23,880 nt of DNA from Candidatus Thorarchaeota archaeon (GTDB lineage: Archaea > Asgardarchaeota > Thorarchaeia > Thorarchaeales > Thorarchaeaceae), in assembly GCA_020348985.1 (NCBI GenBank), contig CP070761.1, positions 132,351-156,230 on the forward strand, in the 5' to 3' direction. Positions 2,551 to 9,344 of the stretch are shown here, one piece after another (position 1 is the stretch's first letter; each line of letters starts with the position of its first letter). A program made the position numbers and the translations under genes. The notes beneath the pieces were generated by a model, which was not told the DNA's origin, made no database searches, and saw only the letters and a program-made list of their open reading frames with translations.

Positions 2551-3411
2551 ATGCCAGAAATAAGAATACAACTGCCAAAAGAGAATTACTCACCTGGAGA
2601 GTCTGTTGAGGGATATGTTGTAGTCAGCTCTGACGATTACTTCGAGTGTAATGCAATACATCTTACTCTGAAAGGAGTGGAGAGTTCGAAAGTTGTGGTA
2701 AGCCACGGTAAATACTCAACTGTCTATGCTGAACAGAATGATTTTCTAGATGAACGGGTGGAATTCCCAGTTGCATCAGGCGTCCAAGCCGGAGATACTC
2801 GCCATGAGTTTAGTTTCGACTTGCCAAAGGACGTTCCGAACAGCTACAAGGGAATGCACGGTGTAATAGAATACTATCTCGTCGCTCAAATCGAACGCAC
2901 AATGAGACGCGACCCGAAAGAGAAGATCCAGTTGGTTGTGAAAGGGTCGTCAGGAGAGTCAGTTACTTCAGAACAGCATTCAGATGGACTCGAAGATGAT
3001 GGGGTTCTCGTGCTGAGAGGGAGCGTCGATGATGATGTCATAAACCGAGGCGATGACTTCACACTCAGCTTTATGCTGAGTGGTGATCCGAATATTCGGG
3101 GAGTGAGGGCCGAAATCATATCGAAGGAGCATGTGTCACCTAAGGGTCAAGAAAGGGATTGGCCCGTGGTCTTGATCAAGAGCCAAATGCCAAAGGAAGA
3201 AATCCCAATAGACACGTGGGTGAATGTTACCCTTCAGACCGAAGCAGATTGGCCCTCGCCTTTCCGGACCTCCTTGATACACTACCGCTACTTCCTAAGA
3301 TTGACATTGGATGTACCGTGGCGATTTGATAAGCATCTGGAGATTCCTCTCAAGATCATGCCAAATGTCGGCATACACGACGACCTAGGTGGATCGGGCT
3401 TCACCTTCTAG
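2551..3411 (+). CDS. Arrestin-fold (arrestin_N + arrestin_C-like; Vps26/Spo0M-related) protein
   Basis: N-domain YSPGESVEGYV...IHLTLKGVE...HEFSFDLPKDVPNSYKGMHGVIEYYLVAQIER, and a second homologous sandwich ...PSPFRTSLIHYRYFLRLTLDVPWRFDKHLEIPLKI. Confidence 0.8.
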   Translation: MPEIRIQLPKENYSPGESVEGYVVVSSDDYFECNAIHLTLKGVESSKVVVSHGKYSTVYAEQNDFLDERVEFPVASGVQAGDTRHEFSFDLPKDVPNSYKGMHGVIEYYLVAQIERTMRRDPKEKIQLVVKGSSGESVTSEQHSDGLEDDGVLVLRGSVDDDVINRGDDFTLSFMLSGDPNIRGVRAEIISKEHVSPKGQERDWPVVLIKSQMPKEEIPIDTWVNVTLQTEADWPSPFRTSLIHYRYFLRLTLDVPWRFDKHLEIPLKIMPNVGIHDDLGGSGFTF

Positions 3412-3479: not shown

Positions 3480-5280
3480 AGCGTGCTTGTCGAACTCGAC
3501 CGACTCGAATGCATACTGCGGCAATAGCAACAATGCCAATGCCACCAAGCGCAATGGATGCCCACGTGATATTCCATATGAACTCGCCAACAATCCCAGG
3601 ACCCTTCATAGGAAAGACCGAGAAGACTGGATCATGTGTTATTGAGTATCCGTCCCAATTGCCGTAGCAAGAGCTGTAGTAGAAGAACTGGTAGGTCCAG
3701 ATACCCACATCATAGGCAAGTTCCGCAGTCGGAACGGCATCCAAATAGAAGCCAGTATAGAACAGTCCTGGCATTATTGCAGTCCCAACGTCATAGGTTC
3801 CTCCGTCTCTACCCCAGACGTATGTTCCACCGAACTCGATGGTCGTTCTGGTAGTGTCCTGCTCTGAAAAGCGAAGAGCTCCACCCGGACTGACCTCAGC
3901 TACGGGAGCGGCCGTATCAATCATCGTGCCGTCGTCAGTTTCTGCAACAATCGTGTAGCTCGAGAACCAGCTCATGTAGTTGAAAGAAAGACTCAGACCG
4001 TCAGCCTCTTCCAAGATAGCCCCAGTGTCTGGATTTCGGAAATCGCCAATGTGTTGGTCAATCTTCAGAACTGCCGCTTCATTGGTCACTTCAAACCTGT
4101 AGACCATCTCAAGTCTATCAACATTCACAGGAATCGACTCTGGTCCTTCTTCTATCACAGCTGGGTCGCAAGTATCACAACCGCCGTACCAGACAATTGG
4201 TGCATACTCCAAGAGCTCTCCCTCAATGTCGACAACCTCTGCACCCCACTCAATCTGGCCTTGCGCATTGATGTAAGGCGTGACAATCTCGCCGACAGTC
4301 CCTGAATTGGGATAGAACTCGTACATATACTCCGAAGCTGTGCTGTTCATTTCGTACATTACCCAGTCTACAATGCTGTCGTTATCCCAGTCGTACTCTA
4401 TTTCATCGTAGACTATGTCCATGATTCCGTCTTCGTCATAGTCATCGAAAATGCTCATTCCCGAGTAGTAGTGATTCATCCACATAGATTCGTTGCCTTC
4501 GAGAAACATCTCATTGACATCATAACCATATCCGGAATACTCCCAATCATAGTCATACTCGTAGGATTCGTTCATGAACGAGACCCACTCGTATTCTTCG
4601 GCTAGAAATGGAATAACCTCGTTGGCGTCAACTTGAGTCTTGTTCTCATCGAACCAAGTATAGTTGGAATGGTGGTAGCCACTCTCATTGAACTCGGTGA
4701 AGTAGAACTGTGAATAGATGAAAACCTCATCACCCGACATCGCTGTAGGCTCAGGCCAAAGGTAAAGGCCCCAGACATAGACGTCCATGGTCTCATCCGG
4801 TAAATCCGTAGAAGGTGCATTTGCCGCAAGCCATGCAACATACGAGGCATCCGGGTCAACCAAGATCGTCACAAGCAAGTTCGTAAAGGCCCACTCGGAC
4901 TGCCATCTGTAGTCGTAGGTCTCCTCAATGTAGTAGATATTGCCAAAGATATCCTCAACAACATAGACCCAACCGTACCACCAATCAGACCCCCCGGTGG
5001 TATTCCCAGGGTCTGGATCGGTCACATTTCCAGGGAGTGGTTCAGGAACGGCATAGCGAAGCGGAACTTGCCCACTATCATATGATCCTGAGTCAATCCA
5101 CCAGTCCCAAGCCACGTAGACTCCAGGAAGCATCTCCGTGAACGGGTCTACAATTTGGGCAGGATTGAGTTCATTGGGCTGAGCGTACGCTGTAGCCTGA
5201 CTGAAGTTCAGTGTCAAGATACTCACTAACAAAACAAGAACCAAGAATCGCGAATTATACGTGCTCATAGAGATCCCCAT
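3478..5280 (-). CDS. Large acidic secreted, C-terminally membrane-anchored cell-surface (glyco)protein
   Basis: Signal peptide (SRFLVLVLLVSILTLNFSQATAYA), D/E/Y/W-rich body, at least 10 N-x-S/T sequons, DxDxDG-like motifs, and a C-terminal TM (WASIALGGIGIVAIAAVCI) with basic tail RVGRVRQAR. Confidence 0.85.
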   Translation of the reverse strand: MGISMSTYNSRFLVLVLLVSILTLNFSQATAYAQPNELNPAQIVDPFTEMLPGVYVAWDWWIDSGSYDSGQVPLRYAVPEPLPGNVTDPDPGNTTGGSDWWYGWVYVVEDIFGNIYYIEETYDYRWQSEWAFTNLLVTILVDPDASYVAWLAANAPSTDLPDETMDVYVWGLYLWPEPTAMSGDEVFIYSQFYFTEFNESGYHHSNYTWFDENKTQVDANEVIPFLAEEYEWVSFMNESYEYDYDWEYSGYGYDVNEMFLEGNESMWMNHYYSGMSIFDDYDEDGIMDIVYDEIEYDWDNDSIVDWVMYEMNSTASEYMYEFYPNSGTVGEIVTPYINAQGQIEWGAEVVDIEGELLEYAPIVWYGGCDTCDPAVIEEGPESIPVNVDRLEMVYRFEVTNEAAVLKIDQHIGDFRNPDTGAILEEADGLSLSFNYMSWFSSYTIVAETDDGTMIDTAAPVAEVSPGGALRFSEQDTTRTTIEFGGTYVWGRDGGTYDVGTAIMPGLFYTGFYLDAVPTAELAYDVGIWTYQFFYYSSCYGNWDGYSITHDPVFSVFPMKGPGIVGEFIWNITWASIALGGIGIVAIAAVCIRVGRVRQAR

Positions 5281-5311
5281 ATCGAAGTAAATCTAGACAA
5301 AGCTTAGCACA

Positions 5312-5343
5312 AAGTATATAGAGTGTTTCCGGTGAACCGTTCA
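5312..5343 (-). promoter_or_regulatory. Putative TATA box and upstream palindrome for the surface-protein gene
   Basis: Minus-strand TATATACTT (5320-5312) lies about 35 nt before the ATG. The inverted repeat TGAAC-C-GTTCA (5333-5343) is just upstream of it. Confidence 0.5.
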
Positions 5344-5431
5344 ATAGGGGTGTCAGAAAAGCGGCCATAAGTCCCAATCTGCTCCGAAAAGGGGGGATAG
5401 CGTTCAGAATCGTTCCAAAGACGTGGTAATG

Positions 5432-5926
5432 CTATCTAGGTACACTCTTCTTCAGGATTACAGTCTTGGTGCGACCGCTCTCTTCCCTTGCAATTAGACT
5501 CTTCCTCTCTAGCGCACTCAGTGAGACACTCAATGTAGACTTGCTAATTCCCGTCACACGCCTAAGCTCATCCTGTGACATATGCCCGCCACTTTCCTCA
5601 AGCCTGTTCAGAATCCTTCGTTCGACATTAGTCAGCGTAACAACAATGACTCGGTCTTCGGCAGGAGATTCGCCTTCCTCATCCGGAATGACCATACGCT
5701 CCTCGAGATCAGTGATTCTTCTCTGCAATCTGAAGAGAATCAAGACGAATACATTGACAACTAGGACTAATGAAACAACGAGGGCTATCGTCGCTGCCAG
5801 AATGACAACTTCGCGGGCGATTGGCATTGCCGCAAGCCAGATCCAAACAGATCCTAGGAGAACGAACACGGCAACAGCTACCAGTAATGCATCAACTCTC
5901 GTGCCCCAGTGCCGCTCTGTACTCAA
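5432..5926 (-). CDS. Membrane-anchored (2 TM + short coiled coil) winged-helix transcriptional regulator
   Basis: Two hydrophobic helices, then LQRRITDLEER, then LTNVERRILNRLEESGGHMSQDELRRVTGISKSTLSVSLSALERKSLIAREESGRTKTVIL. The probable start is TTG 5926, which avoids overlap with DinB. Confidence 0.85.
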   Translation of the reverse strand: MSTERHWGTRVDALLVAVAVFVLLGSVWIWLAAMPIAREVVILAATIALVVSLVLVVNVFVLILFRLQRRITDLEERMVIPDEEGESPAEDRVIVVTLTNVERRILNRLEESGGHMSQDELRRVTGISKSTLSVSLSALERKSLIAREESGRTKTVILKKSVPR

Positions 5927-5966
5927 TCGTTCATCGCCATCCACGTGCCTTTGAAGCTTTGGTCTA

Positions 5967-6464
5967 TTACTTCGGACGGCTCTCTGCCATCCAGCTGTTC
6001 TTGAGAGCCGCCAAATGCCCAGTGTGGTAGTTGAGATGCGTGAACATTGTGGCAACTATCTCACGGACCGACCTGCCAAGGAAGAACTTCGGCACTCTCT
6101 CACCTTCGATTATTCTATCGAATTCTTGGGCATCCGCGTTCTCAGTCCATTGAAGGAACTCTCTCTCGGTCGTGTCAAAGAATTCGAGGATTTCTTCGAG
6201 AGGTGTTTCCAACCATTCGCCTGATGTGCCTGGACGATAGTTATTGAACATCTCGGAGTGTTTAGGACCCTCTCCTCTTATCAGGAAATTGAGCGAGAAA
6301 TCATAGACAGCTCCCTGATGAGCTAGTAGCCACCCCATTGACGACATTCCAGAGCTTGGACGATAGGACAGTTGGCATCCAAGTTTTGTAAGCTCGTTTA
6401 GCTCCATGTCACGCCATTCACGCATGCATTTCGCGGCACTTCGGATGTATTTCAGGTCGTCCAT
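5967..6464 (-). CDS. DinB/YfiT-like superfamily protein
   Basis: Motifs SMGWLLAH near the N-terminus and HLNYHTGHL near the C-terminus form the DinB metal-binding His triad. Confidence 0.85.
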   Translation of the reverse strand: MDDLKYIRSAAKCMREWRDMELNELTKLGCQLSYRPSSGMSSMGWLLAHQGAVYDFSLNFLIRGEGPKHSEMFNNYRPGTSGEWLETPLEEILEFFDTTEREFLQWTENADAQEFDRIIEGERVPKFFLGRSVREIVATMFTHLNYHTGHLAALKNSWMAESRPK

Positions 6465-6662
6465 GCGAATGAACCCAGAGAGCCTGTGGTCAGAGTGCTA
6501 TTGTATCTGTCGGACAGGTAATCATTCCTTGTTTGAGATTTGGAATTGCTCGAAAGGATAAATCGTGGAGGCAGGAAAAGAGGCAAACAGGAAGTGCTTA
6601 AAGGTCGACATTTGGAACCACGGGTGGCCCAATGACTAGCTACTACGGAGGAGTGTACCAGA

Positions 6663-7691
6663 ATGCTGAAGGAGATCTTTGTGATTAGCGAAGGACTCCT
6701 CCTGCTTCATTATAGTAGCGACAGGTCAAGAAGCGAAGACGACCAGGCAATCATGTCTTCTGGTCTCCTTACTGCTATCCGGGATTTCAGCACCCATACA
6801 AGGTCCGACGTTCTCGAATCTTTCTCGACAGAAAACGAGTACTTCATCTTCGCGCCAGACTCTGAAGGGAAGAGGGTTGTCGTCGGTGTCTTTGATCGAA
6901 GAGCTCAGGTTCCGATAGCACGAAAGGCCCTTGAGAAAACGATAGATCTGCTTGCACAGATTGACATGCCCTTGGACCAAGGTCGGCAGCTAAGCCCTGA
7001 AGTGAAGGAAAGATTTCGAGCACAGGTAGAACAGACAAGTCAGCAGCTGTTTGGGACTGAACAGATTGTCTCCTTTGTAGACGAGCTGCTATCCAAACGG
7101 TCCGACATACCGTTGGCTTTTGTAGTAGACGTTGAGGAGAGAAAAGCAATCGCTAAGTTCGCAAGACCACGCCCTCTGTTCAAGGACTCTCATGTGAACG
7201 AGTTTCTACTAATGCATTCAACTCTATGCCGCACAATCTCGAATCTCGGAATTGGTGACTCCTACGTTTATTTCACTCTGAGCTCTCCAGAGTACACAGT
7301 TGCGGCATGCTGGAGCGGCAATATCCTGAGCGTTGCTAGCGGTGCGATGAGAACAAGAGAGGGAAATGTCCTCGGTGCCGCAGTGAATCTTTGTTACCAT
7401 GATTCAGTTGATTCTCTCGCAGAGATTTCTGACGAGCTAAGTCTTTCCAGCCGCCTTTTGATGAAGAAGAGTGGTGATATCAAACATCTAGAGGGAGAGG
7501 ATATCGCGCTCCTTGGTGAAATTGCGTTGTCGACTCTTGTCAAGAATCTAGATGGTTTCTTCAAAGCTCTGAACCGTAGGACGTTCACCGCTTTTGATGT
7601 TGTTACTAGTTCCAAACCGTCAAAGAGATTGAGGTTGCAGAGAGAAAGCAGTGGTGACATTGAGGCCAGCATTCTCTCACACGTACAGTAG
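6663..7691 (+). CDS. Longin-like + roadblock/LC7-like multi-domain protein (putative small-GTPase regulator)
   Basis: The N-terminal domain has the longin signature EIFVISEGLLL...D..IMSSGLLTAIRDFS. The middle domain has roadblock topology (LAFVVD...LGIGDSYVYFTL...ILSVA...EGNV). The C-terminal domain is a degenerate third unit. SD GGAGGAG at 6647-6653. Confidence 0.65.
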   Translation: MLKEIFVISEGLLLLHYSSDRSRSEDDQAIMSSGLLTAIRDFSTHTRSDVLESFSTENEYFIFAPDSEGKRVVVGVFDRRAQVPIARKALEKTIDLLAQIDMPLDQGRQLSPEVKERFRAQVEQTSQQLFGTEQIVSFVDELLSKRSDIPLAFVVDVEERKAIAKFARPRPLFKDSHVNEFLLMHSTLCRTISNLGIGDSYVYFTLSSPEYTVAACWSGNILSVASGAMRTREGNVLGAAVNLCYHDSVDSLAEISDELSLSSRLLMKKSGDIKHLEGEDIALLGEIALSTLVKNLDGFFKALNRRTFTAFDVVTSSKPSKRLRLQRESSGDIEASILSHVQ

Positions 7692-7757
7692 AGACATGGA
7701 AACTAATTTTAGGTCAAGAACTAGTCATCGTTTCCAGTAGACGTGTGGTCGTCAGTG

Positions 7758-8480
7758 ATGCAAGGACAGCTAGGAGAAGAATCAGAGCTTAACGCGGTTT
7801 TCCTCTACATGGGGATTCTGGATGCGTATGAGGCAGTAGGTGTGGAATTAATTGGTCCGGATGTGCTCGAGGAGCACGTGCTACCGAGAATGACCTACTA
7901 CGTGAGAGAGTTTCTCCCAGAGATCTTCTCAGAACGCGCCGATTCGGAGGAACTCACTACCGAGCTGCGTCGGTTCTTGACTGAATTCAGAGCTAGAGTT
8001 GAGGATGCCAGAGAGAAAGGGGTCGCTGGAGCAATGACAATGGAAGAGATATGGGAGCTACGAGCGGCCATTTTCGGATTCGAGTCTGTCTTCATAAACA
8101 TCCTCGGTGACAGCGCCATCAAAAACTACGTTCTCATCAGGATGGCCGACATTCTCTCTGCATATCTGCCGGAAAGTCTTCTCGACCCTCAGATTCCGCT
8201 TAAGACTAAATTGGAGTCTTATGCGAAGTACATCCAGGACAACAAGTTTGTCGGTTTTGCCAGAGTCAGCTTTGGAGATGATGAGATATCAGTAGCGGCC
8301 AACCGTTGTGAATTCTCAAGGATCCACGACTCTGAGGCTTACAGGAATCTCGATGTTAGGTTCTGTCCTTGGGGGATGATAGCTTCTGCAATAGTAGCCG
8401 CTCATGAGGGGAAGGAAACTAACTTGGAGTCCAGTCTGTTCACAACAAAGGGCAGTGTAAGCAAAATCAAGGCAAAGTAG
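7758..8480 (+). CDS. V4R/MetOD1/Bet3(TRAPP)-like fold protein with duplicated N-terminal helical module
   Basis: The C-terminal part EISVAANRCEFSRIH...RFCPWGMIASAI...GSVSKI matches the V4R/H-NOX/Bet3 superfamily pattern (strand-C-x-F...C-P-x-G-helix-two strands). The helical region is repeated internally. Confidence 0.6.
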   Translation: MQGQLGEESELNAVFLYMGILDAYEAVGVELIGPDVLEEHVLPRMTYYVREFLPEIFSERADSEELTTELRRFLTEFRARVEDAREKGVAGAMTMEEIWELRAAIFGFESVFINILGDSAIKNYVLIRMADILSAYLPESLLDPQIPLKTKLESYAKYIQDNKFVGFARVSFGDDEISVAANRCEFSRIHDSEAYRNLDVRFCPWGMIASAIVAAHEGKETNLESSLFTTKGSVSKIKAK

Positions 8481-8492
8481 GAGTGTACATGA

Positions 8493-8903
8493 ATGCAGAA
8501 CTCATGGATGTTTCTTGGAATCGAATCGCTCATAGTTGCAGTGCTCCTACTAGGTTGGTACTTTGGGGCTCGAAGGCTGAACTTCAATATCCATCATCTT
8601 GTTGTCTACACGGTCATTCTGGCTCATGCACTGGTAGTTTTCTTCTGGATGATACCGACTGCACAAGAGATTTCTAATTGGGTTTTCTCGAACCCCATAG
8701 GCAACTTGCGATTAGTCCTCCATTTTGGAATCGGCATGGTGGCTGATATTCTGTCAATCGCTCTCGCGGTTCTGTTCATCTTCCGACGTGACATGCCACT
8801 GAGCATCCTCAGAAGAGCCAGACCCGTCATGATTACCACGCTCACACTTTGGGTTATTGCATATGGGCTTGGCGTGGTAAACCTGCTGTTGAGATATCTC
8901 TGA
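8493..8903 (+). CDS. Four-TM membrane protein with intramembrane His residues (DUF420/cytochrome b-like)
   Basis: Four hydrophobic segments, with His in HHLVVYTVILAH and LVLHFGIG. It starts 12 nt after the V4R-like gene, preceded by AGGAG. Confidence 0.65.
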   Translation: MQNSWMFLGIESLIVAVLLLGWYFGARRLNFNIHHLVVYTVILAHALVVFFWMIPTAQEISNWVFSNPIGNLRLVLHFGIGMVADILSIALAVLFIFRRDMPLSILRRARPVMITTLTLWVIAYGLGVVNLLLRYL

Positions 8904-8978
8904 AGAACTTAGTACGACAGGTCTCCTTTCAAAAAGAGTATATACGTCCGCCCAAGGGTTTCAAAGAGGTTTCGGGAA

Positions 8979-9344
8979 GTGCAGGATTCGGATACAGGTC
9001 AGTTGACGAGAAAGGAGCTAGAAGAACTCAAACGGCTCAAGGCTGTAAGAGAGGCACTTGATGAATTCAAGCGTCGCGGCATTTCTGCCGACATTGCTGT
9101 TTGTCCAAACTGCAAGAGCCCGAGACTTGTTGACCTCACTTCATTTCATGATTTGGGCTACATTGGTTCATTTCAACCAGCCTACTATTGCCTTGATTGT
9201 GGATGGTACGGTCGTTCTATCACCATTATGTCAAACCGGCCTGAGAGAGACGTCGTTCTAGAGGATATGAAGAGCGCCTTTGGCTCACTCCGCGAACCGG
9301 AAGGAACCGAGATCGAGGACACTCCTGCTGAAGAGGATCTCTAG
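8979..9344 (+). CDS. Zinc-ribbon protein
   Basis: CPNCKS...YYCLDCGWYG, with an N-terminal charged helix and an acidic tail. TATA-like GTATATA at about 8938-8944. Confidence 0.75.
   Translation: MQDSDTGQLTRKELEELKRLKAVREALDEFKRRGISADIAVCPNCKSPRLVDLTSFHDLGYIGSFQPAYYCLDCGWYGRSITIMSNRPERDVVLEDMKSAFGSLREPEGTEIEDTPAEEDL

Follow-up and report, generated by a model that had tools for sequence, protein, structure and literature searches.

In a 23,880-nucleotide (nt) stretch of a Candidatus Thorarchaeota genome (assembly GCA_020348985.1, contig CP070761.1, positions 132,351 to 156,230; hereafter, the window), three adjacent genes on the same strand, designated A, B, and C, form a cassette that is conserved across Asgard archaea. 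A encodes a protein with three consecutive longin-type domains, B encodes a protein with a V4R/Bet3 fold, and C encodes a small membrane protein. The explanation that best accounts for the data, to which we give roughly an even chance as a whole, is that the cassette encodes a membrane-associated complex in which a longin domain may regulate a GTPase. An earlier reading of the window's sequence (the original prediction) had proposed a two-gene module of A and B, either a forerunner of the eukaryotic TRAPP complex (proto-TRAPP) or a GTPase regulator; the third conserved gene, C, was missed in that reading.

Gene order and distribution of the cassette

The two adjacent, co-oriented genes 66 nt apart that the original prediction described are both present as open reading frames (ORFs; Table 1). 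Homologs of A, about 340 amino acids (aa) long and 44 to 54% identical, fall into approximately 65 clusters, and those of B, equal in length to it and 55 to 76% identical, fall into more than 150; nearly all carry Asgard labels, and the nearest relatives of both proteins are labeled Candidatus Thorarchaeota. The many same-length clusters indicate that A and B are real genes, and the two ranges of identity indicate that B is far more constrained than A. The A family is small: a profile search across all 1.84 billion cluster representatives recovered only 54 clusters. Neither protein has a Pfam or NCBIfam match at E values up to 10, and neither has a sequence match in the PDB, family profiles included.

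We surveyed gene order in 301 genomes of the phylum. Strong matches to A occur in 35 genomes other than the window's own, 27 of them from its own family (f1), and those to B likewise occur in 35. Of the 34 genomes with both genes, 33 have A immediately 5′ of B in the same orientation, so the adjacency of the pair holds in related genomes; in the 34th, the two genes are on different contigs. Adjacent pairs occur in families f1, f14, f19, and f22, with one f19 locus identical to a protein labeled Freyarchaeum deiterrae and one f22 locus identical to a protein labeled Hodarchaeota, and the cassette is present in metagenome-assembled genomes (MAGs) labeled Thor-, Frey-, Hod-, Heimdall-, Hermod-, and Kariarchaeal.

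The spacer between A and B ranges from 1 to 83 nt among relatives and reaches 789 nt in a single one of the 33 adjacent loci. In this sole exception to tight spacing (L008 4188-4976, G182:C18), the gap contains an oppositely oriented ORF of 193 aa (locus 4309-4890). In the window, an in-frame GTG at 7743 offers another start for B, which would shorten the spacer from 66 to 51 nt. An AT-rich run in this spacer (aaactaatttta, 7700-7711) had been suggested as an independent promoter; the run is indeed present, but because the spacer is so short in relatives, a promoter inside the cassette is not a conserved trait. At another locus, in a genome made up of a single contig (G242:C1:1005758-1006201, minus strand), the B homolog covers only profile positions 11 to 158 in a 196-aa frame and may be truncated or frameshifted; the adjoining A is full length.

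In each of the 10 close loci that were fetched, B is followed after −1 to 15 nt by a homolog of C, a spacing that is consistent with translational coupling of B and C. Members of the C family carry Asgard labels only (Thor, Hod, Heimdall, Hermod, Kari, Odin, and Loki), and their NCBI locus tags adjoin those of B. In two genomes of the same genus, one of them 98% complete, A, B, and C are all absent from the corresponding site; the flanks are kept, 158 to 215 bp are left between them, and no remnants are detectable. This clean absence of the whole trio shows that A, B, and C come and go together, as one dispensable unit. Other neighbors of the cassette are kept among close relatives only.

Family f9 has a more divergent version of the pair, again with the A-like and B-like genes side by side. 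Its B-like protein has a V4R-like core (hhalign, 96% to B residues 83 to 239) fused to an N-terminal region with multiple transmembrane segments. This region is not homologous to C by hhalign, which rules it out as a C homolog; the f9 fusion is a second, independent link of this V4R-like domain with the membrane.

Table 1 Coordinates of the cassette, of the domains of its products, and of the V4R/TRAPP gene cluster (window positions unless a locus is named)
Feature	Position	Strand	Length or residues	Description
Gene A	6663-7691	+	342 aa	ORF; three-domain longin-roadblock-roadblock-like protein
A domain 1	6663-7055	+	residues 1-131	Longin (ββ-α-βββ-αα); VIA matches; outside predicted B interface
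A domain 2	7041-7400	+	residues 127-246	Roadblock/MglB type; main predicted B docking surface
A domain 3	7437-7682	+	residues 259-340	Longin/roadblock-like ββ-α-βββ, from secondary structure; part of predicted B interface
A-B spacer	7692-7757		66 nt	Includes AT-rich run at 7700-7711
Gene B	7758-8480	+	240 aa from ATG	ORF; V4R/Bet3-fold protein
B N-terminal helix triplet	7758-8033	+	residues 1-92	Internal duplicate of first three helices of V4R-like core (hhalign)
B core	8034-8480	+	residues 93-240	V4R/Bet3/H-NOX superfamily; VIA-wide and Atlas matches; invariant C184, H190, C203-P-W, H216
Gene C	8493-8903	+	136 aa	Four-transmembrane-helix protein; starts 12 nt past B
V4R/TRAPP cluster	L014 (G000:C1:2597000-2609000), locus 4343-9306	-		PF02830 and PF04051 matches

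Folds of the encoded proteins

AlphaFold2 (AF2) models of A and B were built with family alignments. The model of A (predicted local distance difference test [pLDDT], 84.8) has three domains, arranged as ββ-α-βββ-αα, α-ββ-α-βββ-α, and ββ-α-βββ. The longin-type start that had been noticed in A is borne out by VIA structure comparison: residues 1 to 131 match TRAPPC4/synbindin (2j3t_D) with Z 12.2 and a root mean square deviation (rmsd) of 3.4 over 122 aligned residues. Further matches of this domain are to COPI zeta, VAMP7, SRX, sedlin, and AP sigma; the first longin domains of Fuzzy, Inturned, and CCZ1 are matched at Z of about 10; and a eukaryotic Sybindin/Sedlin cluster of the ESM Atlas is matched with a template-modeling score (TM-score) by row of 0.66. 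Longin Z values of 10 to 12 are not specific to TRAPP, because COPI, AP sigma, SNARE, and SRX longins score alike.

The second domain has the α-ββ-α-βββ roadblock fold. Residues 127 to 246 match MK-D1 roadblock proteins (Z 9.7 to 9.9, rmsd 2.2 to 2.3; for Roadblock3, 9jue_C, Z 9.9 and rmsd 2.2 over 113 residues) and MglB (Z 9.4 to 9.6, rmsd 2.6 to 2.7; for 3t1s, Z 9.6 and rmsd 2.7 over 118 residues), and A has no sequence match to PF03259 (Roadblock/LC7). Domains 2 and 3 together resemble Ragulator-type platforms in that they match an archaeal di-Roadblock/LAMTOR2 cluster (TM-scores, 0.51 and 0.52; ESM Atlas). The roadblock domains of A are fused behind a longin domain, and, in contrast to classical mglA-mglB operons, no gene for an MglA-type GTPase is adjacent.

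When the whole chain of A was searched against the PDB with Foldseek, ranks 1 to 21 were occupied solely by subunits of tri-longin Rab guanine nucleotide exchange factors (GEFs), namely, Mon1, Ccz1, Fuzzy, Inturned, and the BLOC-3 subunits HPS1 and HPS4 (E values of 7e-10 to 5e-6, probability of 1.0, and about 400 columns), whereas the TRAPP longin Bet5 came 40th. The AF2 model and this search agree on three consecutive longin-type domains in one chain. Since the global TM-score of the 21 top matches is only about 0.24, what A shares with the tri-longin GEF subunits is their architecture and not their rigid-body arrangement.

The tri-longin Rab GEFs (Mon1-Ccz1, Fuzzy-Inturned, and HPS1-HPS4) resemble A in having chains of approximately 340 to 400 residues with three longin/roadblock domains in the same order; in the model of A with B (see below), an accessory protein sits on domains 2 and 3 and the first domain is free. 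The tri-longin GEFs differ from A in domain arrangement, in Pfam membership, and in the nature of the partners, which for A would be a V4R-fold protein and a small membrane protein; we know of no eukaryotic tri-longin complex with partners of this kind. Furthermore, a profile search of the source genome, a single contig of 3.16 Mb, found no second full-length copy of A, so that, unlike for Mon1-Ccz1, there is no full-length paralog to form a heterodimer. The only other match to the A profile in this genome is a 317-aa protein (L002 1447-2400, plus strand; G000:C1:1543768-1544721) that covers profile positions 3 to 140 (E = 9e-7) and has an N-terminal longin-like domain, a "DGGVPIFHY" loop, and a probable winged-helix C terminus. 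Full-text literature searches returned no paper on an archaeal tri-longin protein or on the A-B-C cassette.

The model of B (pLDDT, 83.5) consists of six helices followed by a ββ-helices-ββ unit, and its C-terminal part is V4R/Bet3-like, as originally predicted. The best VIA-wide match is between model residues 94 to 240 and a Thorarchaeal TRAPPC3 protein (Thor-TRAPPC3; 7yh2_A; Z 7.8, rmsd 3.7, 138 aligned residues); H-NOX is matched at Z 7.7 (model residues 14 to 240) and yeast TRAPP (3cue_B) at Z 7.0. Members of the superfamily make up seven of the eight best VIA-wide matches (Z 6.6 to 7.8), and B has the two-layer fold that characterizes them. Other matches are to YslB, BcsD, the V4R protein MJ1460 (Z 6.0), and PoxR (Z 6.0), and Foldseek agrees with the V4R/Bet3/H-NOX assignment, with weak E values.

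The shapes in the Atlas that come nearest to the whole chain of B are prokaryotic: RdxA_C (TM-score, 0.66), Chloroflexota V4R and V4R/MetOD1 clusters (0.55 to 0.64), of which the Chloroflexota V4R clusters match nearly the entire chain, and ATC_hydrolase. The 10 nearest shapes include no TRAPP cluster, and B fails both the TRAPP (PF04051) and the V4R (PF02830) family models at E values up to 10. The caveat of the original prediction that B is closer to prokaryotic V4R proteins than to Bet3 therefore stands. B shares the fold with the V4R sensors (PoxR/MopR/DmpR, MJ1460, and MetOD1) and with H-NOX; the putative metal site of B would lie between sheet and helix. It differs from the V4R sensors in lacking a PF02830 match and any fused transcriptional or signaling output, and in being encoded between A and C.

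Residues 23 to 80 of B, approximately, duplicate residues 107 to 162 (hhalign probability of 82 to 87%; E values of 1e-5 to 4e-6). It is through the two N-terminal helices of this triplet that Bet3/V4R proteins dimerize (Tran et al. 2024, PMC10933270). Because the dimerization helices are duplicated, B probably acts as a single chain. A full single-chain pseudo-dimer is ruled out, as the helix triplet alone is duplicated and the second sheet is missing. Of the earlier proposal that each gene supplies a fused pseudo-oligomer, the three longin/roadblock domains of A and the repeated triplet of B survive, but a complete pseudo-dimer in B does not.

Tran et al. (2024, PMC10933270) solved structures of Thor-TRAPPC3 and of roadblock proteins, and in Thor-TRAPPC3 zinc is held by four cysteines. 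In B, C184, H190, C203-P-W, and H216 are invariant among 38 sequences, and in an alignment with the TRAPP-domain proteins of the source genome the two cysteines, C184 and C203, fall at two of the four zinc-binding positions. This alignment, together with the Cys4 site of Thor-TRAPPC3, suggests a candidate Cys2His2 metal site in B. In MopR, the metal site is composed of Cys, Glu, Cys, and His. The proximal histidine of H-NOX proteins and the Y-x-S-x-R heme motif were not identified in B. Thor-TRAPPC3 (PDB 7YH2), which comes from the same phylum, is the best solved match for B, and two of its zinc-binding cysteines are aligned with C184 and C203; unlike Thor-TRAPPC3, B has about 90 extra N-terminal residues (the duplicated triplet) and an invariant Cys2His2 set instead of Cys4, and it fails PF04051. 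Thor-TRAPPC3 pairs with itself in a homodimer; the predicted partner of B is A.

Alignment and hydropathy show four hydrophobic helices in C and an invariant set of residues that comprises H34, H35, H77, a W-M-x-P motif, and R110. All three invariant histidines sit in transmembrane helices.

Predicted A-B complex and genomic context

A model of A in complex with B scored an ipSAE of 0.64 (0.61 to 0.66 in three runs), while all three controls scored 0.00. In calibration, the ipSAE mark was reached by 58 of 80 solved complexes and by 2 of 110 mismatched pairs; these counts apply only roughly to A and B, since their model used our own alignments. The runs have at least 96% of contacts in common, and the pLDDT of the partners is at least 74. 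On A, the predicted interface comprises residues 144 to 150, 168 to 174, 210, and 228 to 229 of domain 2 and residues 301 to 307 of domain 3; on B, it comprises helix 1 (19 to 34), helix 5 (124 to 136), and residues 214 to 220. Invariant or near-invariant positions are enriched on both sides, accounting for 10 of 19 interface residues of A (background, 22%; P = 0.002) and 14 of 24 of B (background, 40%; P = 0.049). Together, these model-based results support binding between A and B. The interface that had been anticipated, a Bet3-Bet5/Trs23-like contact through the longin domain, is not the one found: a complex is predicted and passes its controls, but B sits on domains 2 and 3.

The longin domain of A is thus outside the predicted interface. 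It is also the second most conserved region of the protein, with 28 of the 74 conserved positions, which suggests that it has a further partner or self-associates.

The source genome encodes approximately 30 Ras-superfamily GTPases. As Tran et al. (PMC10933270) stressed for MK-D1, a cultured Asgard archaeon, genes for small GTPases as a rule do not share an operon with genes for roadblock, longin, or TRAPPC3 proteins. Two of 11 loci, unrelated to each other, have a co-oriented GTPase gene approximately 1.4 to 1.5 kb downstream of the module (L004 6848-7897 and L012 7760-8437, both on the plus strand). The GTPase at the f9 locus is 349 aa long with an Arf/Ras domain at residues 172 to 346; that of G236 is 225 aa long and 45% identical to the product of the G000 gene at 295607. 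With some 30 GTPase genes per genome, 2 of 11 loci is not above chance, and proximity was rejected as a guide to a partner.

Genuine TRAPP-family genes occur elsewhere in the source genome. Two PF04051 genes (170 and 168 aa) and one PF02830 V4R gene (182 aa) are clustered at C1:2601366-2605291 (Table 1), and their presence shows that B is a separate paralog from the canonical Thorarchaeal TRAPPC3-like genes. Each of the PF04051 genes stands directly behind the gene for one of two paralogous proteins (330 and 310 aa, 34% identical) whose N termini are roadblock-like by eye only, without Pfam support, and whose C termini have weak winged-helix matches. A longin/roadblock gene upstream of a Bet3/V4R-fold gene thus looks to be present three times in this genome, with two of the roadblock calls made by eye. 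Fusions of the two folds also exist: one Atlas cluster, 75% of whose members are V4R, contains Asgard longin-V4R fusions, and a Heimdall protein from a MAG, MBD3190748.1, is a longin-TRAPPC3 fusion (PMC10933270).

Several further observations concern neighboring genes and GTPase paralogs. A 121-aa zinc-ribbon-like gene just downstream of C (8979-9344, plus strand) is conserved in close relatives only and is still present in both same-genus genomes that lack the cassette, and a DinB-family gene upstream (5967-6464, minus strand) is missing in G005 and present in G290. About 3 kb upstream of the cassette, a gene of eukaryotic-signature type (2551-3411, plus strand) encodes a 286-aa arrestin-fold protein (Arrestin_N, E = 3.7e-18; Arrestin_C, E = 4.5e-12; weaker matches to Vps26 and Spo0M), and its adjacency is not conserved elsewhere. 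In genus g12, a GTPase paralog with a frame of approximately 179 aa has one in-frame TGA in six genomes (G179:C47, G248:C88, G170:C93, G152:C149, G233:C30, and G284:C101), with an extra TAG in G284 and a 223-aa frame in G233; the recurring TGA could reflect selenocysteine, programmed read-through, or a shared pseudogene.

Proposed function and alternatives

We consider it likely that A, B, and C form a real cassette whose products associate. C would serve as a four-helix membrane anchor with conserved histidines, and the odds lean slightly toward its tethering the cassette to the membrane. B would be a V4R-superfamily protein, probably zinc stabilized and able to bind a ligand, that docks on the second and third (roadblock-type) domains of A and leaves the N-terminal longin free. 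This longin may then interact with, and control, one of the genome's Ras-superfamily GTPases, all of which are encoded outside the window. A GTPase partner is proposed by analogy with the MglB, Ragulator, TRAPP, Mon1-Ccz1, and SR-alpha platforms, and regulation of a small GTPase by the cassette is possible, though on the doubtful side of even.

Several results weigh against this explanation. As the original prediction had cautioned, there is no GTPase gene in the window. Three candidate GTPases without a close ortholog in the same-genus genomes that lack the cassette were followed through genomes of the family, 27 with the cassette and 25 without it, and none tracks the cassette: one is found in 9 of 27 versus 5 of 25 genomes, one is present everywhere, and one is found in 17 of 27 versus 10 of 25. 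The cassette is patchy, with both A and B in 27 of 76 genomes of their own family, and is therefore dispensable. The structural scores of B are middling (Z below 8; Foldseek E values of 0.01 to 0.1), and the score of the A-B complex is the model's own confidence, obtained from our own alignments.

For A, the sequence evidence is indirect. A itself belongs to no Pfam longin family at E values up to 10, Fuz_longin_1 and Intu_longin_1 included, and its link to these two families runs through distant relatives alone, mostly single-domain archaeal longins. One distant relative, P0239, which is A-like and encoded in the same genomic setting, scores 28.3 bits against Fuz_longin_1, above the cutoff of 26.1, and a short single-longin archaeal protein (P0237) scores 26.2 and 26.0 bits against Pfam longin families of the Fuz/Intu type. 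Because short single-domain proteins pass as well, this link points to an archaeal longin of the Fuz/Mon1/Intu type and not to membership in the tri-longin group. Finally, one of four C family members matches DUF420 (PF04238) over its full length, at E = 3.8e-4 and with 21.2 bits, below the cutoff of 30.5; the C of the window has no DUF420 match.

This last match bears on a different explanation, the main rival, which we regard as rather unlikely: that the cassette works without a GTPase, as a membrane module that senses a ligand or redox state, with B as a sensor of a small molecule or tetrapyrrole, C as a DUF420-like protein that handles heme or metal, and A as a scaffold or adaptor to, for example, a transcription factor or an enzyme. 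The V4R, MetOD1, and H-NOX-type families are known as ligand or heme binders, and the nearest whole-chain shapes of B (V4R, MetOD1, RdxA_C, and ATC_hydrolase) as well as its match to H-NOX fit such a role, as do the three invariant transmembrane histidines of C, the failure to find an adjacent or codistributed GTPase, and the pairing of the other V4R/TRAPP genes of the genome with proteins that have a weak match of the winged-helix, DNA-binding type. However, to our knowledge nearly all characterized longin and roadblock platforms act on GTPases, and the longin of A is both well conserved and free in the complex model. In addition, no ligand can be named, and the H-NOX heme-binding residues were not identified in B.

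Alternatively, A, B, and C could be coinherited neighbors without a physical A-B complex, in which the proteins act at successive steps of a pathway or A works alone as a homodimeric roadblock/longin protein. The A-B spacers are longer than the B-C spacers, A evolves much faster than B, and the complex score expresses confidence of the model; yet the controls separate completely from the real pair, invariant positions are enriched on both faces of the interface, and gene order and orientation are kept across at least four families, with the three genes lost together. We hold this explanation to be quite improbable. The weakest reading, and an equally improbable one, is the strict proto-TRAPP of the original prediction, an ancestral core in which a Bet5/Trs23/Trs20-like A and a Bet3-like B would together catalyze nucleotide exchange on a Rab-like GTPase of Asgard archaea: the similarity of the first domain of A to TRAPPC4/synbindin and the Sybindin/Sedlin cluster, that of B to Thor-TRAPPC3 and 3cue_B, and the modeled binding of A to B speak for it, but longins of COPI, AP sigma, SNARE, and SRX type match A about as well, A has the tri-longin architecture and not that of a single-domain TRAPP longin, the predicted interface lies on its roadblock domains, and B, which has no TRAPP cluster among its 10 nearest Atlas shapes, fails PF04051 and PF02830 in a genome that has two true PF04051 genes.

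The preferred explanation, a membrane-associated complex with a GTPase-regulating longin domain, has a bolder form, in which the cassette would be a surviving archaeal relative of machinery ancestral to the eukaryotic tri-longin Rab activators and a membrane-anchored GEF or GTPase-activating protein (GAP) for an Asgard Rab/Arf-like GTPase. In this form, B and C would hold the tri-longin platform of A at the membrane, where it would switch the GTPase; we think this improbable. In MK-D1, the placement of GTPase genes outside regulator operons makes it hard to match regulators to GTPases, and the cassette provides a defined, conserved set of three proteins. It joins the two folds that build TRAPP, and A is the only archaeal protein found here with the three-domain architecture of the Mon1/Ccz1/Fuzzy type. 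If the complex binds a GTPase, then the origin of tri-longin GEFs and of the longin-Bet3 partnership would predate eukaryotes; if it is instead a ligand sensor, then folds known from trafficking would have had other jobs in archaea.

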